Notes: generated from the sequence alone by a model not told the origin. Numbered from the stretch's first letter, positions 498-52,900 are shown. The stretch: 64,000 nucleotides of DNA from a virus (IMGVR_UViG_3300028833_000073:32001-96000), one strand, 5' to 3'. Numbers and translations: made by a program.

Positions 498-1679
498 TTA
501 GTCCTCTCTAACACCAGTCTTGATATTACCAAGAATTCTATATAGAGCCTTATATAGAATGGTCTTATCCTGGTTAAATCTATCTTTATATGCATCAAGT
601 CTAGCGCTGAAAGCAATAGTATGAATAGAAGCAACTTCATTGATCTCATTAGATCTTGCCTTCATATAGTACTCATACTTTCTTGCAGCAGAATCTGACC
701 CTACATCATATTCTTTATCTTTAACCTTAAACTTACCTTCTTTATCAAGGTTTACAATCTTAGATACTTCCTTAGCAATATCATCATATGCCTTCTCGGC
801 TTCTTTCTTTCTCTTCTCTAGATCCTTCTTAATACTGTCATAAGTATTGAAACGGGTATAAGCTTCTGTAATATCAGTAGCTTCAAACTCATAGTCTTCT
901 TTACTAGATTGACCATCTCTGAAAACTTCAAAGAGATCCTTAGAATAATCAGAAGCATCAACTCTAGTATTATCAGTTCTTCCTAGCATATATCCTCTTA
1001 TCTTATCATAGTAATCATCACTTTCTAATGCATTCATATAGTCTTGATATGCTTTATCAATATCAAATCCACTTTCTCCATGCTTCTTAAAGCCTTCATC
1101 AGTATTACCAGTAGCAGGTTTAGTTGTAAATGCAGTATTAAGCTTATTATCCATGATATTAGATAAACCAGTACTTGCACTGATACTAAGCCTACCTGTA
1201 TTACTTGCCACACTATAAATAGCATTCATTGGAGGTACATTTGCACCAGCACCATCATCTATAGTAAACTTAAATACGTTCATATGGAACTTATGGTTCT
1301 CATTAAACTTATTGAAATCCTTCTTATGATCTTTAAGATACTTCTCTCTCTTGATTAGCATATTAATACCTACTAAGAACTTATTCAAAAGAGCTTTAAG
1401 AAAGTCCACTACTTTCTTAATAATCTTCTTAAAGGTATCCATCCAGTCAGAGAAAGATTCAGTAATGAGCATATCATTACCTTCACTCTCACATAAAGCA
1501 CCATAGAAAACTCTATTAGCTTCTAGCATCTCATTGTCTAGATTAGTAAGAAACTCTAGAGCTTCATTCACATATGAGTGATCATGTCTATCTGAGTTAA
1601 TGAAAGACTCATTCAAAGAAATAGCACCTTCTGTTACTACATTGGATGTAGAAGGTGCTAACCTATTAAGATCAAACAT
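498..1679 (-). CDS. putative internal head/virion protein, paralog family member 5
   Basis: Acidic N-terminal leader, then ITE|SFSDWMDTFKKIIKKVVDFLKALLNKF amphipathic helix; shares F..FR.G..SKE motif with the upstream paralogs. Confidence 0.65.
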   Translation of the reverse strand: MFDLNRLAPSTSNVVTEGAISLNESFINSDRHDHSYVNEALEFLTNLDNEMLEANRVFYGALCESEGNDMLITESFSDWMDTFKKIIKKVVDFLKALLNKFLVGINMLIKREKYLKDHKKDFNKFNENHKFHMNVFKFTIDDGAGANVPPMNAIYSVASNTGRLSISASTGLSNIMDNKLNTAFTTKPATGNTDEGFKKHGESGFDIDKAYQDYMNALESDDYYDKIRGYMLGRTDNTRVDASDYSKDLFEVFRDGQSSKEDYEFEATDITEAYTRFNTYDSIKKDLEKRKKEAEKAYDDIAKEVSKIVNLDKEGKFKVKDKEYDVGSDSAARKYEYYMKARSNEINEVASIHTIAFSARLDAYKDRFNQDKTILYKALYRILGNIKTGVRED

Positions 1680-1695
1680 ATCTTAATCCCTCCAT

Positions 1696-2790
1696 TTATT
1701 TCGGTTCATATTTGTAGTTAGCAATCTTAGCTATGAGAGCTTTATTCTGCTTAGACCTTTCTCTAAGAGCACCTAAAGCTGCACCATTGATTGCTAAGAG
1801 TAATGATTTAGATCTATGTGTCCAAGTAAGAAGGTAATTAACCGTAGACATACGATGACTATGTGCATCCTTACCTTTCTTATCTTTACTTCCAACTTTC
1901 AAAGAGTCTTTATCAATATCTTCTCTTGTCTTATTGTAAAGACTCTTCTGATTATATTCAAGCTGCTTAGAGGCATCATCAATGATTCTCTTAGCAGCTC
2001 TATACATCTCTTGTACTTTCTTTCTAGTGTCTCTAGATGTTTGCATCTCGGTACCAATAGTACCTACATTGATCTTACTATTATCCAATGTAGTTTTATC
2101 TTCTTCTCCATTTCTAAAAGCCTTATATAGATCTTTAATGAAATCTGATTGTGATAATTTAGATGCTTGTACCTTAGGGTTGATAGTATGGACTATGTTT
2201 CCTCTAAGGGTTTCAATAGTTGTTTCCATATCAACCTGAGCTTTACTAGGATCTTGGGTATTCTTGATATGAGTTTCAACCTTACTATCATCAAGATTAT
2301 CCATATCCTTATTACTTCCACCAGGCATATTATTACATAACTGCATAGCAGTTTCAATATTCTTAGTTTCTATAGTAAAGACAAATCCATCAAACTCAAA
2401 GTCCGTTAGATTCTTACCAAATACTTCCTTCTTATACTTCTCTAAGAAGGCTCTATCACTCTTAGTCTGTTTATCAATAAACATCATAAACGACTTAAAT
2501 AGAGAGGATAACTTCTCCCAGATTCTATATAAGAACTTCTTAACGGCAAGAATGAATCCTTGTACACTAGCTTCATTATACACTATATCTTCTTTATATT
2601 CTTCCAAATGAGATAATTCATTAACGTATATCTCTTTTTGTATCATATTGTAGTTCTCTGTCATATCAATGACAGCATCAAGTGCTCCCTCTAGATAATC
2701 TTCTCCTAGATACCAAGGAGATCTATCATATACTAAAGACTCTAATGTTAATTCACCTGTTAGAGTCTGATCGTTTTTGAAGATACCCAT
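1696..2790 (-). CDS. putative internal head/virion protein, paralog family member 4
   Basis: MGIF start; YNE|ASVQGFILAVKKFLYRIWEKL; KSDRAFLEKYKKE; AFRNGEEDK; late promoter at 2839-2850. Confidence 0.7.
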   Translation of the reverse strand: MGIFKNDQTLTGELTLESLVYDRSPWYLGEDYLEGALDAVIDMTENYNMIQKEIYVNELSHLEEYKEDIVYNEASVQGFILAVKKFLYRIWEKLSSLFKSFMMFIDKQTKSDRAFLEKYKKEVFGKNLTDFEFDGFVFTIETKNIETAMQLCNNMPGGSNKDMDNLDDSKVETHIKNTQDPSKAQVDMETTIETLRGNIVHTINPKVQASKLSQSDFIKDLYKAFRNGEEDKTTLDNSKINVGTIGTEMQTSRDTRKKVQEMYRAAKRIIDDASKQLEYNQKSLYNKTREDIDKDSLKVGSKDKKGKDAHSHRMSTVNYLLTWTHRSKSLLLAINGAALGALRERSKQNKALIAKIANYKYEPK

Positions 2791-2838
2791 ATAGGGAATC
2801 CTCCTTTCTTAAGACCCTTAATAAGCCTTTATAGTCAT

Positions 2839-2850
2839 TATCTCTATGTT
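2839..2850 (-). promoter_or_regulatory. late promoter AACA-N6-TA
   Basis: AACAtagagaTA on the minus strand upstream of the 2790 gene; motif recurs upstream of structural genes. Confidence 0.7.
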
Positions 2851-2909
2851 TGAGGTACACAAAATATACCCCCTAGGTTTCCCTAGGGGTTTATATATGA
2901 ATGATTGTA

Positions 2910-3176
2910 TTAGGCTTTAACTACCCAGTCATTAGCAAGCATATCTGCCTGAGATGCCAACCAACCAAGCTGTACACCAGAAGTTCCTACGAAAGCAACT
3001 GCCTGGTTACCAATAGCATCATGATTGGCATTGACCACTTCACCTTTAGCATTCTTGTAGCTGATATTGGTAGCAAGCTCAATATACTGATTCTTGCCAT
3101 TCCAACCTTCTCGTGCTACTTGTTTTCCTTCCTTCATAGCGATGATAGCTTCACCAAAATTCATTCTTTCTTGCAT
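2910..3176 (-). CDS. tad2: DUF2829 / Thoeris anti-defence 2 (Tad2)-family nucleotide-signal sponge
   Basis: MNFGEAIIAMKEGKQVAREGWNGKNQYI...GWLASQADMLANDW matches the DUF2829 signature; start moved to ATG 3176 after GGAGG (88 aa). Confidence 0.85.
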   Translation of the reverse strand: MQERMNFGEAIIAMKEGKQVAREGWNGKNQYIELATNISYKNAKGEVVNANHDAIGNQAVAFVGTSGVQLGWLASQADMLANDWVVKA

Positions 3177-3290
3177 TTGTAATTCCTCCATTCTATTATT
3201 AAGAAACAATACATTTATATGTATATAGACAAATTAAAAATAAATTCTCCCTAGGTCGCCCTAGGGAGAAATATATTAGATATGAAAGGA

Positions 3291-4487
3291 TTAATAGTCA
3301 GCTTCCCATACAGCAAGCTCAGCCATTGCCTCTTCCATAATCGCAGACTCTTCCTTACGCTTATAAGCAACTGCCTTAGCAAAAATACTACGATTCTGCT
3401 TATTGTTGAAGTCATAGATCTTAAGAGAAACTTGAGTTGCCTTAAGAACTGCAGACTGCACAATATTAGCAGTACGAGAAAGCATACCTAAAGCTCTCTG
3501 ATGTTTACTAATATTTTCAGAACGAGCATTTTTAGATTTATTATCAGTTCCAGCGGCACCCCATGAAGTACTAGCTGTTGAATATACTTTTGCTTTACCT
3601 TTTTCACTCATATCTGTATCATAGGCTACAGCAGTATGAGATCCTTCATCATTATCATTATCTTTAACTGGAGAATTCTTAAAATTATTATTAGAAGCTT
3701 TTTCAAGATCCTTAATAATCTGATTCATGTCTTTGTTAAGATTATCATATTGCTTCTTAATAGCTTTACGAGTATCCTTAAAGCCCATCATTTCAGTCAT
3801 AATATCATTTATATTTACGCTATCAGTGGTTTCATCTTCAAAAGCCTTATCAAAAGCTTCTTTTTCAAACTCTTTTTCACTTACACTAGATTCACCAATG
3901 AAAGAACCAAGAAGCTTTTCTTTTACATCTTCACCGTCAAACTTTTCATCTTCTTTGCTAATATCTTTATTGTTAATAATATCATAAGTAGAAATATGGC
4001 CGCCTGCCTTTTGGACTTTTACAGAAAGATTATCAAAACTGATAACTTCAAGAGTCTTCTTCTTACGATGAGAAGGCTCAAAATCAGTTAGATCCTTACC
4101 AATGATATCTTTCTTGTACTTATTAATGAATTCCTTGTTATTCTTACCAAACTTAGCTTCAAGACGAGCCATAAAGCCATTGAAAATAGCCTTAATCTTA
4201 GCCCAAAGCTTCTTGAAGAACTCTTTGATCTTATTGAACATATCTCCAATAGCACTCTCAGAGAAGTTCATAACTTCATTCTCATTAACACCTTCATTAA
4301 CCATTAAGCAAGCCTGCATATCTGTCTTAACTCCAGCTTCTACTAGAGCCATTTCATTCTGTAGGCCTACAATCTGTGCAATCTGGGCAGAGTATACACC
4401 ATCATCATAGCCTTCGGCCTCTTGAATATTAAGAGGGGCACTATACCCATTCATAGTATCCATAATCTGATTGGAAAAGATACCCAT
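3291..4487 (-). CDS. putative internal head/virion protein, paralog family member 3
   Basis: MGIFS start; FSE|SAIGDMFNKIKEFFKKLWAKIK; C-terminal KEES motif; late promoter at 4553-4564. Confidence 0.7.
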   Translation of the reverse strand: MGIFSNQIMDTMNGYSAPLNIQEAEGYDDGVYSAQIAQIVGLQNEMALVEAGVKTDMQACLMVNEGVNENEVMNFSESAIGDMFNKIKEFFKKLWAKIKAIFNGFMARLEAKFGKNNKEFINKYKKDIIGKDLTDFEPSHRKKKTLEVISFDNLSVKVQKAGGHISTYDIINNKDISKEDEKFDGEDVKEKLLGSFIGESSVSEKEFEKEAFDKAFEDETTDSVNINDIMTEMMGFKDTRKAIKKQYDNLNKDMNQIIKDLEKASNNNFKNSPVKDNDNDEGSHTAVAYDTDMSEKGKAKVYSTASTSWGAAGTDNKSKNARSENISKHQRALGMLSRTANIVQSAVLKATQVSLKIYDFNNKQNRSIFAKAVAYKRKEESAIMEEAMAELAVWEADY

Positions 4488-4552
4488 TATTTTTCACTCC
4501 ATTCATGATATTTTATCAACCCTAATAACAGGTTTATAGTTAGTGACATCAT

Positions 4553-4564
4553 TATCTTGATGTT
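4553..4564 (-). promoter_or_regulatory. late promoter AACA-N6-TA
   Basis: AACAtcaagaTA on the minus strand. Confidence 0.7.
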
Positions 4565-4613
4565 TAGAGATGTAAAGAACGATGAGTAGTAAATACTCCT
4601 TAATGACGATAAA

Positions 4614-4643
4614 AGAGACTATCCCATATTAGGGATAGTCTCT
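4614..4643. terminator. hairpin/terminator
   Basis: agagactatccc-atatta-gggatagtctct perfect stem just downstream of the 4650-5849 gene. Confidence 0.7.
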
Positions 4644-4649
4644 GATATA

Positions 4650-5849
4650 TCACTTAAGAGCAAGATCTGCTAAGAATCCAGAACCACCAGTTGGTGTATA
4701 AGACTCTTCATATGCACTTTCACTCTTAGACTTATGAGCTACTGCTGCTACGATACAAGCTTTATACTGACGAGAACGATCATTAATCGCCCTAAGTCCT
4801 TCTGCATTAACAGCGGTTAGTAATTCTGCACTAAGATGGGTCCATTTCAAATAATAGTTAGCTCCTGTAACCCTAGCTTCATAATGTTTGCTTTTTTCTT
4901 TATCATTATCTTTAGCCTGCTGTGTATCTCCAGAAGGTTTAACAGGAAGCTCATGATGACCTCCCTTAATAATAGAATTTAATACTTTTTCGGTATCTTT
5001 AATCGTCCTATCAGATGCCTTATATGCATCATTTAGTTCTTTCTTGGTTTGCTTTGAAGTCATAAGTTCTGTAGCATAATCAGAAAGATTAATCTTATCA
5101 AGTTCTTCTTTTTCACTTTCGCCATTACGGAAAGCTTCAAATAAAGCCTTTCTAAATTCAGTAGCATCCATTGATCCACCAGATTTTGCACCTGCAGCTA
5201 CAGCTACTTCACCACGTTCCTTCTCTGCCTCATCAGTAAATTTTTCATTATCTTTCTTAAAATTATCATTATTAGCATCATAAAACTGGCCTGCTTTAGA
5301 ATCACCTGCATTTTTTTCGATACCTTCAAAAGTCTTAAAATTAGATTCACTAATACCACATTTTTTAATAGCATTAGTAAGGTTGTCAAGTGTAAACTTA
5401 TATCCCTTGAAAGTGAAATCACTTAGATCCTTACCACTATAAATCTCTTTCTTATACTTTTGAACGAACTCCTTATCGTTCTTCATATAAGAATCAATCT
5501 TCATAATGAAACGCTTAAAGAGAGCCTTAATCTTCTCCCATACCTTCTTAAGGAAATTCTTAATACTCTCAATGAAGCCTTCAACTACTACTTCAGTATA
5601 TTCATACTCCTTACCAGTCTGCTCCATATAGACTAGCTCGTTACCCATTAAAGCCTTCTCAATCATATTGTAATTCTCATTGATATCAATGACTGCCTGA
5701 AGACCACACTCAGTGAGATCCATACTCTCTGAGAATACAGTATCTAGACTATCATCATTTAGCACTGCTTCCTCAAAACTCTTATTTTCAGTGATCTCAC
5801 TATCATAACCTTCATAGCTATTCTTAACTGTCTGGCTAAAAATACCCAT
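4650..5849 (-). CDS. putative internal head/virion protein, paralog family member 2
   Basis: MGIFS; VVE|GFIESIKNFLKKVWEKIKALFKRF; DKEFVQKYKKEIYSGK nearly identical to the 5996-7207 product. Confidence 0.7.
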   Translation of the reverse strand: MGIFSQTVKNSYEGYDSEITENKSFEEAVLNDDSLDTVFSESMDLTECGLQAVIDINENYNMIEKALMGNELVYMEQTGKEYEYTEVVVEGFIESIKNFLKKVWEKIKALFKRFIMKIDSYMKNDKEFVQKYKKEIYSGKDLSDFTFKGYKFTLDNLTNAIKKCGISESNFKTFEGIEKNAGDSKAGQFYDANNDNFKKDNEKFTDEAEKERGEVAVAAGAKSGGSMDATEFRKALFEAFRNGESEKEELDKINLSDYATELMTSKQTKKELNDAYKASDRTIKDTEKVLNSIIKGGHHELPVKPSGDTQQAKDNDKEKSKHYEARVTGANYYLKWTHLSAELLTAVNAEGLRAINDRSRQYKACIVAAVAHKSKSESAYEESYTPTGGSGFLADLALK

Positions 5850-5937
5850 TTTATTTTCATTCCTTTCATCGTATATTTCAAAGCATTATTAACTTACTTG
5901 AATGTAATCCCTATTCAAGAAGTCTGGTTAAAGACTT

Positions 5938-5949
5938 TATCTCTATGTT
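5938..5949 (-). promoter_or_regulatory. late promoter AACA-N6-TA
   Basis: AACAtagagaTA, identical to the copy at 2839-2850. Confidence 0.7.
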
Positions 5950-5995
5950 TAAATGATCAATTTAAAGAGGATACCATTAGGTATCCTCTTATATC

Positions 5996-7207
5996 TTACT
6001 TCATAACCACACTAGAGAAAGGAGTATAACCAAGACTAGCAGATTCTGCTAACTGTGCTACACTCTCATTCTTAGGCTTATGAGCCACATAGGCAATGAT
6101 AATTGCCTTATTCTGTCTAGACCTTTCTTTAAGAGCATTAAGACATGCTCCTTCAATAGTTAGTACACATGTTTTAGTATCTTTAATTGCTCGCATATTA
6201 AGGCTTAATGTTTTTGCAGCTCTATCACTTTGTTCCTTTCCAGTTGCATTAATAATAGATTTTTGTGCATTTCCATCTTTATCATAACGAGTAATGGTAG
6301 CAGATGATGATTTTGCATCTTTATCATCTAATGGCTGAGTTTTAAAAAAATCTTTTTGTCTTCTATCTACTTCTTTATCATCTTCATCTATAGATTTCTT
6401 TGCAGCTTTTAACATATCTGTCATTGTTTTCTTTGTTTCTTTTGATGTCATAAGTTCAGTAGCAATACCACTAATACCACCAGGAAAATCTTTTTCATCC
6501 AATTCTTCTTTAGATTCTTCTCCGCTATGATAAGCATTACGAAGTTCTTTAGTAAATTCAGATTGGGTTAAGGAGCTAGATGATTTTCCTGTTAAAGTTG
6601 TTATTACTTTTCCTCTAAACGCATCTGCAAGATCTTCGTATTTATCTTCAGTTTTCTTAAGATCATCTAGTGGTTTGGCAGTAGATCCTGCTAATTCTCT
6701 ATAGTCCATAGATTTAGCAACACAATCTTGAACAGCCTTACTAGTATTATCAAATGCAGACTTACTAAATTTCCATCCTTTAAAGGTGAAGTCAGTTAGA
6801 CTCTTACCACTATAAATTTCTTTCTTATACTTCTGAACAAATTCCTTATCAGTCTTTGTCCAGCTATCAATCTGCATCATAAATCTCTTAAAGAGAACCT
6901 TAATCTTCTCCCAGATCTTCTTAAGAAAGTTCTTGATGGCATTTACCATGTCACCAAGCATTCCTTCATTGTATACCAGGAGTTCACCGGTTCTCTCAAG
7001 ATATGAAGACTCAGCTAAAGCAGTCTGAGTCATAAACATATTGTAGTTCTCTTGCATAGTAATGCAGCAATCAAGAGCGCCTTCCATTAAGTCGTCTCCT
7101 TCATAAGGCTCTACATTACTATCAGTCATAATGGAATCAAGAGTGTCCTCATTAAAAGGTTGTTCTCCATGATATCCATAATGGGCTTCATTAGAAAAGA
7201 TTCCCAT
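5996..7207 (-). CDS. putative internal head/virion protein, paralog family member 1
   Basis: MGIFS; YNE|GMLGDMVNAIKNFLKKIWEKIK; C-terminal KPKNES. Confidence 0.7.
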   Translation of the reverse strand: MGIFSNEAHYGYHGEQPFNEDTLDSIMTDSNVEPYEGDDLMEGALDCCITMQENYNMFMTQTALAESSYLERTGELLVYNEGMLGDMVNAIKNFLKKIWEKIKVLFKRFMMQIDSWTKTDKEFVQKYKKEIYSGKSLTDFTFKGWKFSKSAFDNTSKAVQDCVAKSMDYRELAGSTAKPLDDLKKTEDKYEDLADAFRGKVITTLTGKSSSSLTQSEFTKELRNAYHSGEESKEELDEKDFPGGISGIATELMTSKETKKTMTDMLKAAKKSIDEDDKEVDRRQKDFFKTQPLDDKDAKSSSATITRYDKDGNAQKSIINATGKEQSDRAAKTLSLNMRAIKDTKTCVLTIEGACLNALKERSRQNKAIIIAYVAHKPKNESVAQLAESASLGYTPFSSVVMK

Positions 7208-22011: not shown

Positions 22012-25000
22012 TTATCTAGATGCGACATTAAACAACGCAGCGGCCATCGCTTGTAAAGCATCAATATTAGCAGTCTCGTCTCCTCTATCTCTAGCACTTT
22101 TATTATTCGTTATCATGCTTATATTATTTCCTCCACGTACATTCACAGTATTATTGACAGTATTGTTCAAGTTACCACCAGTAAGAGCATTAGCTATAAT
22201 CTTCAAGTAATTTACACCTTCACGTAAGAGGCTTACTGCTTCTTCTTGACTTACAGCACCAGTAGGAGGAGAATCAATATTATCCTTAGCATTCTTTAAC
22301 TGAGTCTGATTAACAGTATCCATCTGAGTGATAGTTTCTTCAGTTTGCTTCTTGATATCTTCTAAAGTATCTTCCTTTTCAATATCTTTTACCTTAGCTC
22401 TATCTTCTTCTTGTTGTCTAATAATTGTAGGAATATTATCTTTCTTTTCAGGTTGTTCCTTCTTAAGATTCTCTAGCTGTTCTAGCTGATTAACTTGTTT
22501 ATTCTTCTTAAGATCACCACTAAATCCACCACCGACAGTATAGTCTGGTAGCTTATTCGTATCTATAGTAGGCTTAGATTCCTTCTTATTCTCTTCAATC
22601 CATTTCTTCTGAGTCTCTAGTTTCTTTTTCTTAACCTCATCATTATCATCCTTAGTAATTAGAGCTTCTTTAGGACCTTTGTATGCTTTAATATTACCTA
22701 GCTCATCTAGTTCATTCTCATTCTTTACTATTCCACTCTCTACACCAAAGTTCTTGAATAGATTATTTACCTCATCTTGTATCTTCTTAAGCAGAGCGTT
22801 GAATGCATCAATAGGATTCTTATTCTTCTTATCTTCCTTCTTACAATACTTATCCATCTTAGACAATGTAGCTATTGCTGATTCTCTTGTCTCTCCCTTA
22901 TCCATAAGAGCTAGTATTTCTTTCTCTTCATAGTGCTTTCCATTAGGAGCTACCTCAGGTGCTAAACCTTTTTCCTTCAACTTAACTGCATCTTCTACTT
23001 CTCCTTCAATCTTGTTGTTAGGTTGCTTCACATTCTCTTTAGTCTTATCTTCTTCAAAGGGATCTACACCACCAGTTGTCCAACGATCAACCGGTAACAT
23101 ACCGCCCTTCTTCCATAGCTCTGCATCTACTACAAAGTGTGCCCATGTTCTATTTAATCCAAATTCTCTATATCCAAGTGCTTGTTGTGTAGCCTGATTA
23201 AGTACAGTATCATCTGTAGGAATACCATTAAACCCAACTGCTTTAGCAACTTCATCAAGAGTAGCTGCTCCCTTAATATAAAGCCTTGCTGTAGGACTAG
23301 CTTTACTAGCATCATTGAAGTATTCTCCACCTTTAAAGGTATCTATCTTAGCTTGAGTAATATCTCCAACTTTAGTATCTCTCTTCATACTATCTTCGAT
23401 AAATGCATTAGCCTTCCAATCAACCTTCTTAGTCTCTTCCTTAAATGGATTCGTTCTTATCTTCTCATCTCTAGTAGGTACATGAATCTCTTCTTTCTTT
23501 GTAGACTCTTCTACTTTACTCTTAGCAGGTTCTGGCTTAGGAATAGGTTTCTCTGGAATATCTTGTGCCTTCTCAATAGGCTTCTTAAGTTCTTCAAATG
23601 GATCTACACCACCAGTTAACCAACGATCAACTGGTAACATACCACCTTTCTTCCATAGCTCTGCATCCACTACAAAATGTGCCCATGTTCTAACAGGACT
23701 ATATTCTCTATATCCAAGTGCTTGCTGTACAGACTGATTAAGCTTAGTACTATCTGAAGGAATACCACTAAATCCAACTGCTTTAGCAACTTCATCAAGA
23801 GTAGCTGCTCCCTTAATATACAATCTTGATGTAGAACTAACTTTACTAGCATCATTATAATACTCTCCGCCTTTAAACTTTTCTGCCTTAGCCTGAGTAA
23901 TTCCTAATAGTGAAGTATCTCTAGAAGCATTGTCCTTAATAAATGCATTAGCTTTCCAATCAACTTTATTAGATTCTTCCTTAAATGGATTAGTTCTTAT
24001 CTTCTCATCTCTTGTAGGTACATGAACATCTTTAAAGGTATCATGAGCTGTTTCTATCATTTTCGGCTTTGGTTCTTCTATCTTCTTCTTTTCCTCTTCT
24101 ACTACCTTAACTCTTTCTTGTACTTGTTTACCTCTCTTTTGCATTAGTCTTTCTTGTAGTGATCTTCTATCTTCTTCTTTAGGTTTCTCAATAGATGGAG
24201 TCTCTGGTTTAGGAATAGGTTTCTCTTGAATATCTTGTGGTTTCTCAATAGGTTTCTTATCTTCTTTTATCTTAGCTCTTTCTTGTACTTGTTTAGCTCT
24301 CTCTTGTAACATCTCTTGTTGTGGGCTAGGTTTACCCTGTTGTGGTTTAGCTTCAGGAGTAATAGGCTTATCACCCATATTAGGATTAAATCCACTCTTA
24401 TTTCTATACCATTCATCAAAAGATTCTTGAGACTTAGGTAATGCCATGAATTTATCATAAGGAACACTATATGTCATAGTACCATCAGAACTACGAATAC
24501 TTACTTTCTCTATATCAGCATTAGCACCAACTGAAGCTATAATTTGATTAATCTGATCAATATAAGCACTAGGATCATTAGTCTCAGGATAAGCTACAAA
24601 CATTCTTCCTTCTTTGTGTCCAGTTCTTGACTGTCTTATAGCTTTCATTCCAGCTTTAGTAATATCTGCACTTATCTTTCCAATACCACTTGCTGACCAA
24701 TCTGACAAGTTATGAATATTAACATTTACACCCTTAGAACCTTTACCATATTTAGTCTTACCACTACCTTCTCCTTGAAGAGCTTGTGCTTCTTCTAGAG
24801 CTTGCTGAGGAGTTATTTCTCCTGAAGCAATTCTGTCATTGAGAGCTTTTGCTCTTTCAAAAGGAAGTTGTGCTAGTGATATAATATCGAAATATCCAGC
24901 AAAATCTAAAATATTAGCCAATGCAGGGAAGTTTTCAGTAATATAATTTGAAGCTTTCTCATATGCTTCATTTCCAAGAACTGTTTTTCCTAACCATTTA

Positions 25001-28000
25001 AGACCATCTTTTTTAATCCCTTTACCATATTTAATCTTACCACTACCAATACCCATGTATTGCATATTAGCCATAGGATTACCATCAGGATTCTCATATG
25101 CGTATTTAGCGCAAGCTTCTAATATAAACACAAAAGGATTACTAATCAAATCTGCTACATCCATAGCACCTGCGCAGAAACTAGCAAAGTCTTCACTAAA
25201 TCCAAGATCAACTAGAATATCATATAAATTCCATCCTGCATATTTCTCTGCACCTTTTCCACCTAACTTAGTAGCTACATATTTCGCAATAGTAGTAACT
25301 GCACCCATACCATATCTAGAACCTAGTCCCAAATTAGGTATAAATACTTTTCTTCTCATTTCATTCAATTGATCAGGAGTAAATATAGCTTTAGGCTTAT
25401 TCTCTGGGAATGTTCCAGGAGTTCTAGGAATTCTATCAATATCAATCTTAGGAACAGCAGGTTTAGGCTTATTCTCTGGGAATGTTCCAGGAGTTCTAGG
25501 AATTCTATCAACATCAATCTTAGGAACATCAGGTTTAGGCATTTCAACAGGTTTAACAACTTCAGTAGGAATATTAGGTTTAGGCATTTCAACAGGTTTA
25601 GTAACTTCAATAGGAGTATTAGGCATCTTAGGAGCTATATCATCTTTCTTAGGAACAACTACATCTGGTTTATCTATCTTAGTTTCTGCAAATGGATCTA
25701 CACCACCAGTCATCCAACGATCAACTGGTAACATACCTCCACGCTTCCACATATAAGAATCTACTAAGAAGTGTTGCCATGTTCTAACAGGACTATATTC
25801 TCTATATCCAAGTGCTTGTTGTGCTGCCTGATTCAAAGGCATACTAGGATCAGGTTCTCTATTAAATCCAACTGCTTTAGCTACATCTTCTAATGTACCT
25901 ACACCTTTAATATACTCTCTGACTACATTTGATGCTTTACTAGAATCATTATAGTATTCTCCACCTTGGAATGTATCTATCTTAGCTTGAGTAATACCAA
26001 GTAATGAAGTATCTCTACTACGGATATCTTTAATGAAGTCATTCTCTTTCCACTCATCATATTCTACTTTATCTGCTATTGGCTCCATTAGCTTCTGTGG
26101 AGTTGTTTGTTTAAATGGATATGCGATAGCATCTCTTACTTTAATCCAGAAATCATCTAACCATCCAAAGATTCCACTTCTTCTCTTCTTCCATCTACGT
26201 TGTTTCTCTAGCTTCTGTAGTATTATCTCATCTGAATCTGTAGGTTTACATCTATACTTATCGGGTCCATTGTATCCTTTAATATCTCCATTAGGATCAA
26301 ACTGTACATTCTTCCATGGATCACTAGCCATTCCATATTTAGTCTTACCACTACCTGTACCAGATAATGAGTATTCCCAAGGATTCATTCCAGATTTTTT
26401 AGTACAACCAGCATCAGGATGAATACCGTAATGTAAATGATCTCCAAATGAATGACCTGTATTGTCTGCCGTAGCAACTTGATCTCCAGCTTTTACTGTT
26501 TGACCAGGCTTTACTGTAGGAGCTGCATTGTGGGCAAACATATGATAGTTCCCTTTAGCATCCTTGATTATAACAAAGTGTCCATAACCTGCACCATAGC
26601 CTTCAGTACATGTATCATCAACAACACCGTTTACAGGTGTATATATAGGATCTCCGCTTCCATAAGCTAAGTCAACACCACCATGGAAATCTTCTGCACC
26701 ATTTAATGTTCTAGGTCCATAATCTGACGTTATTCCTTCATCCTTAGTAAAGTTATGATATTTCAACAATGCATCTACTGGGTTATCTCCTACTGGAGCT
26801 CCAGCATTAGGTCCTTGCGCTGCTTCTGCGCCTGCACTTGCTGCTGTCTGAGAACCATTAGAATTAGTATTTCCTGCATTAGGCTTAGGTACCGTTAGTA
26901 ATCCGAGTGCTTTTGCTTTAATCAATAGATCTTTAGCATATGGGTCAGTAGTCCAGAACTTAGCCAATGTTTGACCAATTAATCCACCACCAAATAGGCT
27001 ACCCATATCTCCTAAATCAGCACTAATAGATGTAGCATCGCCAGAACCAATAGCTACTGCTGCTCCAGGTCCTGCGCTATCTACAATCTTAGTAGGTGTC
27101 TTATCTCCTGTAGAATATTTACTATAGTACTCTTCAGCTTTAGGTATTCTTCTTGTATATAGATGATTAACCTCTGGATTCTCATTAGGTCTTTCTACTC
27201 TCTTCATAAATACTTCTGTAGCTGATTTTACATCAGGTCCATCTAACTGATCTAGCAATGCTTGTACTGAAGATTTGCCTAGAGTTATATCTTTTTCATG
27301 ATGTAAGAATTCATTACCAAGATAATCTATTTGTGTTTGATAACTACCTGTAGAACCTCCAACTTGTCCTGCATATTCTTTCAATCTGTCACGTCTTGAA
27401 TCACCTGCTCCAGCAGACCATTGATGCAGCCCATATCCTTTATCTTTTCCACCAGGGAATCCTGCTTCTTCTACTGCTTCTAGAGTATCATAGTGCTTCT
27501 CATTGCCTTCCCATGCACCAGGATCTAAGGAAGATTCAGCATCAAAGTTACCCATAAGAGCTGCCGTAGCATTCTCTGACCAACCTTTACTTCTGATATA
27601 TTTCCAAAGTTCTCCTGGATCCATTGAAGTTATAGCATCACCACTACCCTTACCATATTTAGACTTAGCTTTCTCTAAAACTTCATCAAATCTATGCTTT
27701 CTATCAAATAGCTCTCTCACATTAACTGGCATCTTCTGTAGCTGTTCATCATCTACTTCTGTCTTAACTCCTCTAGATTGTTGTAGCAATCTATCTTTTA
27801 CTGTAGCAATTTCTTTGATATTTATATGCCTTGCTATCTCTTTATCAGCCATAGATCTCTTTTCAGGTTTAATACTAGCTAGTGTAGTTCCAATATCAGT
27901 CTGAATAGAATTCATAGTTTTATATTCTTTAGGCTGTTGCTCATACCATTTCTTTTGTGCTTCAATTTTAGCTTTCTGTGCAGTTATAGTATCTTTAGTG

Positions 28001-31000
28001 GGATCCAATCTATTGTAATCAGGACCATTATAAGACCCAAGATCTTGCATAGTATTTCCAGTCTGATTTTGATTTTTAATCCATTTAAGCTGTGATTGTC
28101 TCTTAGCTTCTTTTACTGCTGGTGAATCATTATCCTCATCAATCTTATTGTAATCAGGACCATTATAACCTTCAATATTAGAACCTTTACCAAATTTACT
28201 CTTTCCACTACCTTTACCCTTCATAGACATTGGATCTTTAGTACCTGGCTGCTTCATAGACATTGGATCTTTAGTACCAGGCACATTATCCTTTAATCCA
28301 GCACTAGGAGTACATGCTTTAGCTTTATTCACAATATCATCTATCTGGTTGAATATTCCAGGTCCAGGACAATCTGTGTTATTATATTCTTTATGACCTT
28401 TTACTGTCTTCCTACTTACATCAAATCCATACTTAGTAGCTACATCCTTAATGAGCTGATACAAAGACTTAAGCTGTTCTGCTGTAGGTTTAACATCCTC
28501 TACGAAAGTACCTGATAAGTGAATACCAATACTATCACTATTATGACCTTGACAATGAGATCCTACTGTATCAATAGGTCTTCCTTCTTCTATTGTACCA
28601 TTCTTTCTGATTACAAAGTGATATCCGATACCTGCCCATCCATTACCTAGATGCCATTTATGTATCTCATCTGCTCCAACATCTCTATCATCTTTAGCAC
28701 TATTACCTGCTCCAGTATGATGTAGAATAATCTGTTTAGTCTCTTTTCTATTCTCTAATCCACTAGCCCACTTATATTCTTTATGAACTACATTTGCTAA
28801 TCCACTTCCTCCACCAGGCTTTACATCTCCAGCAGGTGTAACAGGTTTGGCATCTGAGGGGTTTCCTCCACCAATATTACCACCAAAGAGATTAGCATGG
28901 ATAATGGCAAGTGGTCCAAATGCACTAGCTAACATCTTTCCTACTACGCCACCGCCAAACTGATCCATGATACCTCCACCGCCACTACTAGTGGAAGTAG
29001 AAGTCTTATCAGAACCAGTTTTAACGTCAGCAATATCAGTAGATTGTTTAGTACCAGGTTTATACCCTTTTAACTTAGGTAGATCATCTTTATAGTCTCT
29101 TAAATGTGCACTCAATCCAGAAGCATAATTTGCTTGATCTCCAGCATAATATCCATTCTCTTTAAGTATTCTAGCAAAGTCTTCAGGATTATCAGCATTA
29201 GCAATATCAGATTGATACCGTTTATATACATTATTGAAAGCTCTTTGAGCATATTCTTCATCAGAATTAAATCTAGCATAATATCCACCTTCAGGACGAG
29301 GAACACCTTTATGGTCTTCACCCATTCCTTCATACCAAGTGAATCCACCATAGTTATGATCATCAGCACCAATCTTAGGAATAACAATACTCTCCATATC
29401 ACTTAGATACTTATTAGGACCACCAGTTTCATGCATCAATTGTGCCCAGAATAATTCAGGATGCTCACTTCCTACTAGCTTAGTAATATCTACTGCAATC
29501 TGTGCAAATGGAGGATCGCTATCTGTTGCAGGAGTACCCATACCATATTTAACTTTACTAGAACCTTTGCCTAGGAATGCAGCTCTTCTCATCTCAGTAA
29601 GTCTTCTAGATCTCTCTGCATTAGTCTCTATCTGTTGCTTTCCTTCAGATGTAATATTGAATCCTACACTACTCTTATTAAGAACTTGGTTAGCATTATA
29701 TAGAACATTACTTCTTCTCTCTTCAGGATCTTGGACTACTATGTCTCCACTCTTAGTAACTCCAGTAGCAGTTACATAGTGTGGGTTAGGTCCAAATGGA
29801 GTAGATTGACTTGTTCTATCATCAGTACCCATTAGAATAGTAGGTTTACCATGCTTAAGATTATCAAGTATATCACTCTTATTACTCGTCTGATCTGCAC
29901 TCAATCCAGCATCAGATGCCATTCTCTTAAAGTAATTAAACTTAGTACCACCATCAGTCTCTAACTCTTCATCCTTAACACTCTTTACCATAGATAATGG
30001 ATCTACTCTCTGTCCAGTTGCACCGGTGATAGCAGATGCCATAGCCATAGGACCACAAGCACGTTCTCCAATAGTCATCTTCTCTGTGTCAGAATCTTTA
30101 TTGAACTGAATATCTTTAATAGATGGATCTAACTGAGAGTAGTTAGCACCAATATTAGCAGCCATATATCTATTCTGTACTTCTTTCTTAGCATTGATTA
30201 CTGTTAAGCTATCATTCTCTTCATCAATCTTATTGAACTCAGGACCATTATAACCCTCTAAATCAGAACCTTTACCATACTTAGCTCTAATGAATCTATC
30301 AGTTTCTGGTCTACCATTCTCAAACGTATAAGTTCTATTAGGATCTACTCTATAAGAATTCCTTATCTTAGGATCTTTCTCTTTTCCTGAACCAGTACCA
30401 TCTTCTGGTACATAATCTGTGAGTTGCTCATTCTGTGCAACATCTTTAAGCTCTACATTTATTTCTCCTCTAATAATCTGATTAACTTTCTGACTTAGTA
30501 TCTTACCACTATTGACTCTATTAATCAAATATGCCTTATCATAATCACTCAGATTCTCAGATTCTTTAATCTCTTTGATAGCGTTTTGCTTAACTTCTTC
30601 TTTAGAAGCATTGATTTTCGCCAAGTCTTCATCTGTTCTATAAGTACTGTCAACTTGCTTTCTAAACTTTTGCTGTTCATCTGGAGGTAATTCATTATAT
30701 AATTTATCTAGTTCTCTCTTCTTCTTATCTCTTTCAGCTTGAGCTGCATTGGCTGCTTTAAGAGCTTCTAATTGTTCATGAGCTTTCTTAGCTTCTGCTA
30801 TTCTTTCTTCTGGAGTCTTCTTATAATCTTCTATCTTCTTCTTTACGTCACCAGCATCAGTACTTTCTATTTTAGACTTTTGATCTGTTTCATCCCACCA
30901 CTTAAAGAAGTTACTTACCTTATTCTTCAATCCACCTAAAGTATCTAGAATACTACTATTACCATCAAATACTTTACTAGCAATATATCCAAAAATCTTT

Positions 31001-46955: not shown

Positions 46956-49900
46956 ATGTCAGCTATAGTAGATGATCTGAAAAACTATATGCTATACAAT
47001 AAAAAGATATATCTTCCAATTAATGATGATGACCGTAAAAATGGAAGTGCTATCTACTTACTTACTCCAAACTTGAATTCTTCTAAAGATATCTTAGGAG
47101 ATGTATATAATCATACTAAGTATGATGGTGCTATTAACTGGGCTAGCTACTATATGGAAAAGGATATGTCCTTCTATTTCCATACTGAATCTCATAAGAT
47201 GTCTAGACTAAGATCTAATCTTATTCTAGAGGATAGTGAATATACACTTGAGACAAATGTTAAAGGGACATTAAGTGAGTTCAAACGAGTGGAAATAAGT
47301 GAAGAGTTAATAGATCAATATAGTGGAGATTGTGATGATGTAAATGGATTGATTGGTTACTTTCCATGGACTGGTTATCTATATATGAATGAGAATGATC
47401 AGATAGTTGCTGGGTTAAATGTGAATGTAGATGATAGAGATATTCATAAGATCTTTGTGGTCGATGAAGAGAAGTATGGTTATCTATATAAGGATCTAAT
47501 TGCAGAAGCTAGAAAGATGAAAGCTAACTACTGTACCATTAGCAAGAATAATACAAGTGCTATCAAAGCACTTGAAGAATTTGGTTTTACTAAGACTGAA
47601 GACTTAGTAGACAATATAAAGATGCAGTTTAAGATTCCTATCACTGAATCTACTAGAGAGTCTGAAGTTATTGACTTCTTAGAACACTCTACTATGTTTA
47701 GACATATTAAGAACAATATCCAGTTTACTGAGCAGTATAAAGCTTTTAAGAAGCTAGTTATCTACTACTGTGAGTTCTTCAATATTAAGAAAGAGATAGG
47801 TATTCTAGGTGCTATCATTGTCTGTAGTAATAACCTAATCAATCCAGAAGAGTTGAGAGGGAATCTAAAGATTCTTAACTACATGAGTCAAGAAGAGATT
47901 GCTATTGCTTATAAGGCTGCTATGGGAGCATATGAACATAAGTTCATCGGAGAGAATATATATGATAGAATTCTATTTGATGGTTATAGACTCATACACT
48001 TCACAGATATTAATGTCATTATTAGAGATGAAGTCTTAGCTTACTATGATGAGCATAGTATTAATGGAAGATGGGATAATAACTTCCTATACATGAATGA
48101 AGTAGAAGAGATAGTGGAGAATATTAAGAGGAAGCATAGTACTAGTTCACCTAATCATATGATTCTTAATCTCTCTTATAGCTACTATAGGAAAGCTCAT
48201 AAGAAAGTACAATCTGCTATAAATAAGGGATTAACTAATAAAATTATCATTGACTATAGGGTCACTGTAAAAGAATCTGCTGAAGATGATATAGCTGCTA
48301 ATATACTCAATGAAAGTCATATCTCTTTTGGGTATGAGGATGAGAAGTTTACTAACTATGATCCTGATTGGAGATTCAAGTTATTTCCTAACCACAGAGG
48401 ACCTGGATTTGGATTTACTACTAAGACTGACTCTAAGAATCTAAGAGGAATCATTATAAGTTCTGGTACTGAGGTTAAAGGTGTTATAGGTGTAGATGAG
48501 TATAATAATATCATTGAGATGTACTGGACTGATATCAATCCTACTTTCTTACTAATGATTGCAGAACGTAAGTTCTATGCCAATAAAGTAGCTGTACCAA
48601 GGGGATATAAAGTAGCTATAGAAGCTCTTCAAGAATGTTCTAGCTGGTGTGAAGTAGAAAGAGATGAGCATGAAATTCACTTTGATTGTTACTCTCAAGA
48701 GAGGATTCCATATAAAGATATTGGGATTACTAAGAATGTAGCAAATATCTTTAATAGACTATCTTCTACTGACAAGGAGTATCTAGGTAATCAGTATCTT
48801 AACCCAGTATGTATCTCAAGTACTATCTGGAGTAAGGTATTAGAGGATACAGCTCTTGTAGATGTCTATGTACAACCTACTATGCCAAAGATCGGATGGA
48901 TTGATATTGCTGTGGTAGAATCTCAGAGAGGTAAAGGTTATGCTCTACGATTGATAAGAGAAACTCAAGAAGAGATAAAGACTAAGTTCAAAGATATAGA
49001 TGCTCTAGGATGGGTATGTCATAAAGACAATACTGCTTCATATAATCTTGCCACTAAAGCTGGTTTCTATCCATATAAAGAAGTAGAAGACCACAAGTAT
49101 CTTCTATGGACTATCCACAATACAGATATGATTCCTAATACATTCATAGAAGAAACAGAAGAGACTGAATGGACTGTAAAAGGTATAGAAGAATCATCTA
49201 CTATCAATGGTGATGGAGTAATGATGTTCATAGATGAAGATGTATCTAAGGTAATGGATGATGCTAAGTTTGGATCTAAGCTAAAGAAGATTATGTGGGA
49301 AGATAGAATTAGGAATAATAAGCAGGTACTACAGATATATGACTCTGTTAAGAAGGATACTAATGGTGGTATCAAGTACACCTATCTAGATCTTAATCTC
49401 TATAAGGGAAGGAATCTATTTGTTGACTTGTCATTCTATAACATTAGCTTCTTTAACAACTATACTAAGGCTGCTCCGAATGAAAGAGGACTAAATGAGA
49501 TGTACTTTGAGCTAGTATCTAGATTGATCAATGATAAAAGAATCAAGGATAAATATAAGAAAATCAATGTAATCATTCCTATAGAAGATTGGTGTAAAGA
49601 AGATATAAAGAAATATAAGGCTGAAGCTGTTAGAAAGGCAGACTACTGGGAGAATCTTAGTCCAATAGGTTGCTTCTTATTCTATGCAGAGAAGAATCCT
49701 TTAAGACTTCGTCAAGAGTTTAAGAATATTAACTTCATCTTCATTAGTGAGAGTGGTAGTTTCTTTAAGACTAACTTCACTGACTATGATAAGTCTAAAG
49801 ATTTTGTTAAGTTTAGAACTGCTGTACATAGCTTACTTAAGAGAGTCCATATTCCTAAGGATGAGACTTATGATAAGAAAGCTATAGTTCATAGTGTACT

Positions 49901-52900
49901 AGATAAAATGGAGTCTAATGGAGAAAACAAAGTAGTCATCAATAGCATTATAGCTAAACCTGAAGAACCTGGTAGTATTGATATACATGATCCAGCAGAT
50001 ATGAATGAAGAACAAAAGAAGAAAGCAGTTGTAACTAAGATTACTAATGCTGCTGAGAAAAGTAAGAGTCCTGAAGATGTAGTTGACACTATGTCTAAAG
50101 ACAATGAGTATGCCAAGGAATATACTGAAAAACTACTTAAGGATCTAGCTGATAATGAAACAGGGAATGTTAAGCTATCTGCTGCTAGAAGTAAGAGATT
50201 AGATAGTTTGAGTGAGAAGTTCTTATCTCAGAAGGTAGTAGATAATAAAGCTAAGTTTAATGGTACTATGGAGGAGTATATCAACTATAATTCTAATGCG
50301 GAAGAGTTACCTGAGACTGCATTACCTATAGAGAGTATCAATGAAGGATGGAAGCATCTTAAGTTTACTAACTTTGATGCTAGATATAGTGTAAGATCAG
50401 ATATCTATGCTATTCTATACTCATTTGAGAATAAGACTAGTAGGTTATCTATAAGGGATAAGATTGATATTGTAGATACTAGTACTACAGAAGACTGGAA
50501 GGAAACATGGACTGTTCCTTTTGAAGCTGATACAGGTAAGAGATTCAAGTTGAAGTTTGATGTTCCTTTGTTGAAAGATAATAGAAATATGGTATTAGGT
50601 GGTAATGACAAGACTATGAATGGTCAGCTAGTACTACTACCAATATCTAAGACAGATGAAGATACAGCACAGATAGTATCTCTTTACAATAAGATCTTTA
50701 TTAGAAGATATAGTATGGGCAACTGTAAGGCTAATAGGGAAACCGATAGGTTAAATAAAGCAATAGAGATTTTTACTAAAGAGCATCCAAATATTATGAA
50801 AATAACATATGGAGATAGCTCTAAGAGTAATGTGAAGTATGCTCTTCCTTTCGACTATACTGAGCTAGCTAGTATGTACTATAGCATAGAGCTGTATAAG
50901 AATAATAAACTAGAGCTTAAGATACTATTCAATCAAGACCAAGCAAGAAAAGAAGCAGGTCTTAAAGATGATGATACAAGAATGCCATATGGATACACTG
51001 TAAGAAATGGTAAGAAGGAAACTCTATTCTGGTATACTGATGATAGGATGGTATTTGCTAGTCAGGTTGTAGGTGTTATAAGTGGAAGATCAATTGAGTT
51101 TTATGATGTATATAAGAAGATAAAGCCAGGTGCTAAGCATTGCTATAGTAAGGCAAGCATTTTAGGTACTGAGATTCCAGTGATAATCATTATGGCTTAT
51201 TGTGAAGGATTGATAGAAGCTCTTAGAAAAGCTCATATCAACTATATTATCTCTGATAAGAGGGTCAATAGTTATAATGATACTCATGATATGATCAAAT
51301 TCAGTGATGCTTATCTATACTATGAAGATACTTATATTGGATCTATGCTTATGAATGGTATTAAAGATGTAGATACTAAAAGTCACTCTATACAAGAAGT
51401 AGATTCTAAGTCAATGTGGACTGAATTCTTAGATGAATATGGTGGTAGAGCTAAGTCCGATGGTCTTGATAACTTCTATGATCTTATGATGGATCCTATC
51501 ACTATCGAGGTATGTAATGTATATAAGCTTCCTACTGACTTCTGTGAGATGTTAGCTTATGCAAATCTCTTACTATCGACGAATGAGTATATAAAGCATA
51601 CTGATCTTAGTTCTAATAGATATAGAACCAATGAGATGATTGCTGTTCATGCTTATAAATGCTTAGCAAAAGCTTATGCTAATTATAGACTACAGCTTAA
51701 GAAGGAAAGATCTAATGTAGCTATGACTATGAAGCAGTCAGCTATCATTGACTCTATCATGGAAGAATCCATTATGTCAGATCTATCCATAATGAATCCT
51801 AACCTAGAAGCAGAAGCTATCAACTCTGTAGGATTCAAAGGACTTACTGGTATGAACAATGATAGATCTTACTCATTAGACAAGAGAACTTATGACAAGA
51901 GTATGACTAATAAGATTGCTATGTCTACTGGATTTGCTGGTAACGTAGGTGTTAATAGACAGACTACTATAGATATGCAGATATATGGTACTAGAGGATA
52001 TATAAAGAACTCGGATATGAAAGATGCATCTGTTACTAATACTCTTAGCATCACAGAAGCATTAACTCCATTTGGATCTACTAGAGATGACCCATTTAGA
52101 ACTGCTATGACTAATATCCAGACAAGTAAGCATAACATGAGAATCAAAGAGTCCATGCCTATGCTAGTGACATGTGGTGCTGATCAAGCATTACCATATC
52201 TTACAGGAGATACATTCTCGTTTAAAGCTAAGGGTAATGGTAAGGTTATTAAGAAAAATGATGATTATATGGTCGTAGAGTATGATAATAAGACTAGAGA
52301 GATGATAGATCTAAGAGAGAATGTTAAGAAGAACTCTGATGGTGGTTTCTATATCACTGTGAAGCTAGATACTAATCTTAAGAAGGGATCTAGATTCAAA
52401 GAGAAGGATATATTAGCATATGACAAGGTAGTATATAATGACTCAGTAGGTGACGGTAAGAATATAGCTTACTGTGTTGGTGCTTTAGCTAATGTAGCTT
52501 ATCTTAATACTGATGAAGGATTTGAAGATTCTGCTATTATCTCCAATAGATTAGCAGAAGCTTTATCATCTGAAGTAGTAGTAGAAGTTGCTAAGAACTT
52601 ACCTTGCAACACTAACATATTTGATATCGTTAAGAAGGGTACTAAAGTACAAGAAGGTGACACTCTACTCTTATTCCAGTCTCCATTTGAAGAAGAGGAT
52701 GCTAATAGAATCGTCAAGAATCTTGCTATGGATAAGAAAGAAGTATCTGAGCTAGGAAGAATACCATTAAGATCTAAAGTAACTGGTGTAGTACAAGATG
52801 TAAAGCTCTATAGAACAGTAGAACTATCTGAGATGTCTCCTAGTCTTAGGAAGTTGTTCAAGGAATATGAGTCTAAGATAGAAGTAATGAGAAAGGACTC

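Follow-up and report, generated by a model that had tools for sequence, protein, structure and literature searches.

The window analysed here is a stretch of 64,000 nucleotides (IMGVR_UViG_3300028833_000073:32001-96000) from an uncultured jumbo phage, and the analysis centres on one minus-strand open reading frame (ORF), 22012-43383, which is translated without an internal stop into a protein of 7,123 amino acids (aa; P0001). In the C-terminal part of this giant protein a short glycine- and lysine-rich sequence, hereafter called the tag, occurs eight times, and it stands at the borders of modules that include five enzymes (C39-like, glucosaminidase-like, Amidase_2, Phage_lysozyme2 and Peptidase_M23). 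The tags, their placement and conservation, and the intact catalytic residues of the C39-like domain are established directly. From these sequence features we favour, at a little under an even chance, the reading that the product is a virion polyprotein in which the tags are protease sites cut by the built-in C39-like peptidase. Put forward more tentatively still is the fuller account, a tagged phage polyprotein in which eight aromatic-Gly-basic-Gly sites would be cut by its own C39-type protease of novel specificity, thereby setting free, at the host surface, the separate wall enzymes together with two ~95-aa peptides, while the tags would let the lineage swap its lytic modules freely. In the order of translation, the protein is laid out as follows.

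22012-43383, minus strand: giant ORF (P0001), N-terminal ~4,300 aa a putative structural, tape-measure-like part, C-terminal ~2,800 aa a module array
30382-30399, minus strand: tag copy 1, first half (GTGSGK, aa 4329-4334), 33 residues before the second half
30268-30282, minus strand: tag copy 1, second half (KYGKG, aa 4368-4372), upstream of the C39-like module
29704-30156, minus strand: C39-like cysteine peptidase domain (aa 4410-4560)
30055-30057, minus strand: catalytic candidate Cys4443
29779-29781, minus strand: catalytic candidate His4535
29728-29730, minus strand: catalytic candidate Asp4552
29536-29571, minus strand: tag copy 2 (aa 4605-4616), separating the C39-like from the glucosaminidase-like module
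29047-29535, minus strand: glucosaminidase-like (divergent GH73-type) domain (aa 4617-4779), beginning right after tag copy 2
28339-28761, minus strand: Amidase_2 domain (aa 4875-5015), in one block with the glucosaminidase-like domain, no intervening tag
28183-28218, minus strand: tag copy 3 (aa 5056-5067)
27646-27666, minus strand: tag copy 4, short form (aa 5240-5246), immediately ahead of the lysozyme module
27097-27621, minus strand: Phage_lysozyme2 domain (aa 5255-5429)
26389-26700, minus strand: Peptidase_M23 domain (aa 5562-5665), in one block with the lysozyme domain
26326-26361, minus strand: tag copy 5 (aa 5675-5686), final residue Ala for Gly
25303-25329, minus strand: tag copy 6, degenerate (aa 6019-6027)
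25054-25302, minus strand: small module s1, 83 aa, a tag on each side, no family match
25018-25053, minus strand: tag copy 7 (aa 6111-6122)
24775-25017, minus strand: small module s2, 81 aa, a tag on each side, no family match
24739-24774, minus strand: tag copy 8, the last (aa 6204-6215), followed by 908 residues without a further tag
22015-24738, minus strand: C-terminal 908-aa part, with two more copies of a ~130-aa unknown domain (aa 6450-6578 and 6630-6758)
30136-30261, 28051-28176, 27916-28041, 26158-26283 and 22567-22692, minus strand: a second repeat of ~40 aa, no family match

Five of the tags are full 12-residue copies, copy 1 is split by its 33-residue insert and two are shortened. 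The units that they delimit are the C39-like module, the glucosaminidase-like plus amidase block (4617-5015), a 179-aa helical spacer, the lysozyme plus M23 block (5255-5665), a module with the unknown ~130-aa domain and a Pro-rich repeat, the 83-aa and 81-aa modules and the 908-aa end. All nine motif pieces listed in the first-pass annotation of this DNA lie within a few bases of where it had placed them, and they do bracket the C39-like domain, the two two-enzyme blocks and the small C-terminal modules, as it had noticed. Pfam recognises Peptidase_C39_2 (aa 4415-4553), Amidase_2 (aa 4881-5008), Phage_lysozyme2 (aa 5259-5423) and Peptidase_M23 (aa 5566-5656). The module at aa 4617-4779, which the annotation had called a glucosaminidase, has no Pfam match in the window's own protein; that name holds by homology to a module of the related protein P0011 (28% identity, E 5e-10), which scores 55 bits on Glucosaminidase PF01832. 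For s1 no homologs were found among 20 giant relatives.

In the window's protein the tag reads G-x-G-S-G-K-x-K-[YF]-G-[KM]-G, and the family consensus is G-K-G-K-[YFW]-G-[RK]-G. The protein has 9 copies of the tag core, [KR][YFW]G[KRMQ][GA], where 2,000 residue shuffles give 0.25 on average and never more than 3, and residues 4301-6300 hold 8 copies where 0.09 would be expected; the enrichment is ~35-fold, and it is 20-50-fold in most relatives. A logo of 138 copies gives G at position -4, K at -3, G or S at -2, K at -1, Y, F or W at 0, G at +1, R or K at +2 and G at +3. The information content is one-sided, with conservation from -4 to +3 and background from +4 on, and such abrupt one-sided conservation is, as far as a sequence pattern can indicate, that of a site read on its non-prime side. 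Copies inside one protein share their aromatic and basic residues above chance, to which we give little weight because genome base composition or duplication could cause this. The tag with its Gly/Lys context was not found in the other ORFs of the 158-kb contig or in the ±10 kb flanks of six related loci; this restriction to the giant protein is more in line with a dedicated protease than with a general one.

Three database searches gave 189 related proteins, most of them 3,100-6,600 aa long and encoded on metagenome contigs of 250-320 kb. The consensus tag recurs in ~140 of these relatives, on jumbo-phage contigs, and at least two copies are present in all 120 further relatives of 684-3,896 aa. 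Single-protein and glucosaminidase-profile scans of the IMG/VR viral contigs gave no loci, and the GenBank phage collection contained no close relative of the module array. Placement of the tag was evaluated in 28 representatives less than 70% identical to each other, with domains mapped by family-specific hidden Markov models and 2,000 permutations. Only 4 of 154 tag copies fall within mapped domains, against 45.8 expected (permutation minimum 29). A tag ends at most 15 residues upstream of 37 of the 93 domain starts (5.4 expected, maximum 15) and lies at most 40 residues away from 32 of the 93 domain ends (13.5 expected, maximum 24). The modules typically preceded by a tag are the glucosaminidase-like (9/11) and lysozyme (16/23) ones, and those followed by it are M23 (8/15) and C39-like (17/30). 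Directly before the amidase or M23 the tag never occurs in these representatives, and the two-enzyme blocks are therefore a family feature. In seven of eight relatives homology of the glucosaminidase-like module starts at query residues 2-5, right past the tag.

The first-pass annotation had staked its proposal on the motif being kept at module boundaries in homologs, and there it is clearly kept, in proteins whose identity outside the tag is only 24-45%. The order and set of the lytic modules vary and the tag is still at the joints: P0003 has C39, amidase, M23 and lysozyme, and P0008 has C39, lysozyme, amidase and M23. Among the 28 representatives the optional modules are the glucosaminidase-like one (11), amidase (8), lysozyme (22) and M23 (15). 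Tandem module duplications bounded by tags are seen in P0010, P0033 and P0024.

Some observations on the modules and on individual relatives may be added here. Within each two-enzyme block a Gly-rich hydrophobic stretch (28864-28983 and 26890-27006, minus strand) joins the catalytic domains where the tag is absent; these stretches are glycine-zipper-like and possibly membrane-active. The second repeat, of ~40 aa, reads Y-N-G-P-D-Y-N-x-x-D-x-x-N-D and continues into a basic helix ending in K-W; three of its five copies come right after a tag, similar units also follow tags in P0003, P0004 and P0005, and the repeat may be a spacer or a pro-piece. The aromatic-rich unknown domain of ~130 aa is present in three copies (25744-26136, 23650-24036 and 23110-23496, minus strand) and is tripled in P0003 too; an Atlas feature search gives only unnamed, mostly viral clusters for it. 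P0107 begins at a Met within a tag, most likely as a gene-calling artefact of a broken gene. At locus L008 (17401-17429) a frame change in the structural part, away from the tags, splits the giant gene into products of 3,413 aa and at least 1,672 aa, which may be a sequencing error or a genuine division of the gene. Some genomes seem to carry two giant paralogs, as judged from the equal length of the longest contigs listed for P0069 and P0187 (254,467 bp each); of these presumed paralogs one has C39, lysozyme and the tag, and the other NlpC/P60, lysozyme and a divergent C39-like domain without such a tag.

The first module of the array is, as the annotation had noted, a C39-like peptidase with its C, H and D candidates intact (Cys4443, His4535 and Asp4552). 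It matches PF13529 (clan CA) over aa 4415-4553 with 34.9 bits at a cut-off of 24, and the double-glycine leader peptidase family PF03412 is not reached (13.6 bits, cut-off 22). It is the sole enzyme module that all 185 relatives with mapped enzyme modules have in common, and it is always the first one; P0143 and P0144, which lack it, are proteins cut short or split within their structural part. Across 188 copies of the domain the Cys and the His are invariant (188/188 each), the Asp is kept in 186 (Asn in 2) and an upstream Gln in 173. In an AlphaFold2 model the domain has a confident core (predicted local distance difference test score, pLDDT, of ~90) and a papain-type fold with a Cys-His-Asp triad, and Foldseek matches it best to the peptidase domains of PCAT1, ComA and LahT (E ~1e-5); similar scores are obtained for the endoisopeptidase PeiR, staphopains, phytochelatin synthase and the toxins StbD-CT and Cpe1. 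Every tag copy in both AlphaFold2 models has a pLDDT below 50 and lies beside a confident folded core, not docked on the C39-like domain, and the tag segments are thus, according to the models, likely flexible and without a fixed fold. Prediction of a complex between the C39-like core and a 45-aa linker alignment reached a score of 0.25 (mark 0.32), which we count neither for nor against cleavage. In 19 of 30 domains the catalytic Cys follows the end of the upstream tag at a distance of 29-38 residues; in the window's protein this distance is 71 residues because a mini-module is inserted. In the clade of P0003, P0005, P0007 and P0010 the C39-like loop just before the catalytic His carries a tag-like sequence (L002:19742-19774; P0005 aa 3248-3258; pLDDT ~41), a possible internal site of self-cleavage or regulation of the protease.

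Border conservation amid 24-45% identity, one-sidedness, location in low-confidence segments and confinement to one protein point together to recognition of the tag from its N-terminal side, and a protease site is the simplest reading of these features. The C39-like domain is the best candidate for the protease because it is universal and fixed in position, and M23 is present in only 15 of the 28 representatives. Several modules and an embedded, catalytically intact protease are found in one ORF, and the short junction site is conserved in relatives, as in a polyprotein. The processing site proposed by the first-pass annotation thus gains a conserved border tag and an intact, universal peptidase, while cleavage itself, the scissile bond and the identity of the cutting protease are what we infer. 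In the polyprotein so conceived, a long structural N-terminal part would be followed by the array of wall-degrading modules with disordered, tag-bearing linkers between them, and the tag would be recognised by the protease, which would cut at it or just after it. The C39-like peptidase would first cut its own flanking tags and afterwards the others, during assembly or after ejection. The predicted products would be the C39-like peptidase of ~244 aa, a glucosaminidase-amidase of ~451 aa, a lysozyme-M23 protein of ~440 aa, the spacer, the unknown-domain module, two peptides of ~95 aa and a C-terminal piece of 908 aa.

The annotation had also appealed to the Gly-Gly/Gly-Ala specificity of C39 peptidases, and this part does not hold, as the tag is aromatic-Gly-basic-Gly and contains no Gly-Gly. 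A new C39 specificity must therefore be assumed, with the cut after the second or the first Gly of the core. Papain-fold enzymes that place a bulky residue at P2 provide an analogy for the cut after the first Gly.

Several points weigh against the polyprotein reading. The Gly residues of the tag are split by a basic residue, and the characterised C39 peptidases all cut Gly-Gly. An intact C39-like domain without the tag is found in more distant relatives, among them P0153-P0190 and the protein of 3,026 aa from Fusobacterium phage JD-Fnp1; their linkers are otherwise Gly-rich or not recognisable at all, and the domain therefore does not depend on the tag. The converse natural control is missing, as none of the 190 proteins combines the tag with a dead or absent C39-like domain. 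One of the catalytic domains ascribed to phage lysins is Peptidase_C39_2 (PMC8223927), and the domain of the giant protein could be one more wall hydrolase, PeiR being found at a similar fold score. A fixed distance between tag and Cys is expected of any boundary tag. Finally, the missing ~36% of the genome could hold a trans-acting protease or other tagged proteins.

Among the alternatives, an uncut tag is the most probable, and we regard it as unlikely. The tag would then be a conserved hinge or docking element, and the array would work as one tethered multi-enzyme chain, in which the Lys/aromatic/Gly patch might contact an anionic wall polymer, the tail-tube lumen, the baseplate or an assembly chaperone. 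The Lys/Arg, aromatic and Gly composition would suit contact with a glycan or teichoic acid, multi-domain lysins commonly function without cleavage, and both the low model confidence of the tags and their failure to dock on the C39-like domain are in line with this. However, plain flexible linkers are not normally conserved in sequence where the rest shares only 24-45% identity, and a symmetric binding patch would not be expected to lose its conservation suddenly past the last Gly. With ~2,800 folded residues in each chain, the array would probably also be hard to fit in the tail as one piece.

Rather improbable is that the tag is cut by another protease, such as a phage head or tail maturation protease, the M23 domain or a host enzyme, with the C39-like domain acting as a wall endopeptidase or an injected effector. 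The tag without the Gly-Gly typical of C39 substrates, the persistence of C39-like domains in tagless relatives and the presence of PeiR, StbD-CT and Cpe1 among the fold matches all agree with it. So does the missing 36% of the genome, as no prohead protease was found in the recovered part: families S77 and S78 were not detected in the contig (~64% complete). A general maturation protease, however, usually has several substrates, and the tag is in no other ORF of the contig or of the six flanks; M23 is lacking from nearly half of the tag-bearing representatives (present in 15/28); and a host enzyme would hardly account for conservation across phages of different samples.

That the tag is mainly a joint at the DNA level, a short in-frame border sequence promoting the recombination that shuffles lytic modules, is very improbable: the variable module order and content with the tag at the joints, the tag-bounded duplications (P0010, P0033 and P0024) and a 24-nt exact run common to two window copies speak for it, but exact runs shared by the DNA copies do not exceed 24 nt and span only 5-13 nt in most pairs, the nucleotide identity is largely explained by conserved residues and codon bias, and the conservation is at the protein level (interchange of Y/F/W and of K/R), which recombination does not need. 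A recombination joint had been suggested by the first-pass annotation too, and shuffling at the tags could be a by-product of either cleavage or docking. 2A-like skipping, an intein and hedgehog-type self-splicing were rejected, because the residue after the tag is not conserved.

Self-processing of virion lysins has precedents, and the present protein is best rated as an extension of known self-processing virion lysins and polyproteins, an unusually large case with eight tags and five enzymes. In TP901-1 the tail-associated protein Tal undergoes proteolytic processing at a Gly-rich motif that separates its structural from its lytic domains, which yields virions with and without the lytic part (PMC11409707). 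Tal (TP901-1/Tuc2009) likewise combines a structural part at the N-terminus with wall-degrading domains, M23 among them, at the C-terminus, but it has one site in ~900 residues, compared with eight tags in 7,123 residues, and its motif is a poly-Gly/Ser/Asn run in a protein without a C39-like domain, whereas here an aromatic-Gly-basic-Gly tag is accompanied by one. The C39 toxin StbD-CT cuts itself in cis within a flexible linker, at a point 25 residues ahead of its catalytic Cys (bioRxiv 10.64898/2026.05.07.723447). StbD-CT and Cpe1 (PMC12136450; PDB 8ssk, 8ssm and 9l5u), both among the fold matches, resemble the present domain in having a C39-type papain fold within a very large protein; however, they cut at Gly-Gly, target GyrB/ParE in a rival cell, have one processing site and come with an immunity protein, whereas the giant protein has a tag without Gly-Gly and wall hydrolases as cargo.

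Peptidases of the PCAT/AMS transporters (PCAT1, ComA and LahT150) are the best structural match, with the same Cys-His-Asp triad and Gln, and they too read their substrates on the non-prime side. They differ in being fused to ATP-binding cassette (ABC) transporters and in recognising an amphipathic leader helix that ends in Gly-Gly; the C39-like domain sits inside a 7,123-aa virion-type protein, and the tag, aromatic-Gly-[RK]-Gly, has an upstream part that is rich in Gly and Lys and not helical. In polyvalent proteins many effector domains are likewise found in a giant phage polypeptide for which autoprocessing by an embedded peptidase is predicted, but that prediction is based on a zincin-like metallopeptidase (MPTase) and the cargo is mostly anti-restriction and nucleic-acid enzymes; the text does not mention C39, tape measure or linker (Iyer et al., 2017, PMC5512222). 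In the giant protein Pfam gives only wall hydrolases and C39_2.

A single ORF with an embedded papain-like cysteine protease and short, conserved junction sites with small residues is also found in positive-strand RNA virus polyproteins. These belong to another virus realm and their cleavage is established, whereas cleavage at the tag is a prediction. A literature search revealed nothing comparable to an RNA-virus-type polyprotein described for tailed double-stranded DNA phages, and a full-text search for the tag strings retrieved no phage paper. If the tags are cut, tailed phages would have a full polyprotein in addition to the single-site processing of tail lysins known from Tal, the specificity of the C39-type protease would be a new one, and phage virion proteins of 3,000-7,000 residues bearing many folded enzymes would be explained. 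The tag and the protease would also be a potential protein-engineering tool, a natural portable 'cut here' signal with its enzyme, and the lysin modules of these uncultured phages, already delimited, form a catalogue.

The source record of the window is linear, 158,305 bp long and ~34% G+C, and its completeness is estimated at ~64% (CheckV). Met24 of the giant ORF may be the true start, because the alignments of relatives begin at about residue 29. Neither Pfam nor PHROG nor NCBIfam gave any match for aa 1-4400, tape-measure family models included; the sole PHROG 'tape measure' match of the giant protein runs through its M23 domain. The only link to a tape measure is a weak match to g083 of phiR1-37 (140 aa at 31% identity, E 1e-7), which is annotated as a 'putative tape measure tail fibre protein'. 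The gene order of giant gene, 500-730-aa virion protein and RusA is kept in all six relative loci fetched and in JD-Fnp1. The Fusobacterium phages JD-Fnp4, JD-Fnp6 and JD-Fnp7, cultured like JD-Fnp1, are syntenic with it, and their giant proteins presumably also have the C39-like domain and lack the tag, as was read directly in JD-Fnp1. The designation as a tail protein by the first-pass annotation is a plausible proposal.

Other genes of these phages may be listed briefly. The jumbo-phage contigs of the relatives carry a tubulin-family gene near the giant gene (L002:33402-34205), ThyX (L004-L006) and an anaerobic ribonucleotide reductase (L007:29507-31609), which suggests anaerobic hosts and possibly PhuZ-like biology. 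On the plus strand of the window (46956-53294) there is a fused RNA-polymerase beta-type gene, whose product of 2,112 aa is ~30% identical to those of PBS1, Staphylococcus jumbo phages and phiR1-37 and has ~1,000 additional N-terminal residues including an acetyltransferase-like stretch (aa 645-714, PHROG E 6e-8). At 498-7207 on the minus strand five paralogous genes with products of 364-403 aa stand in a row, with mutual identities of 21-37% and no PHROG match.

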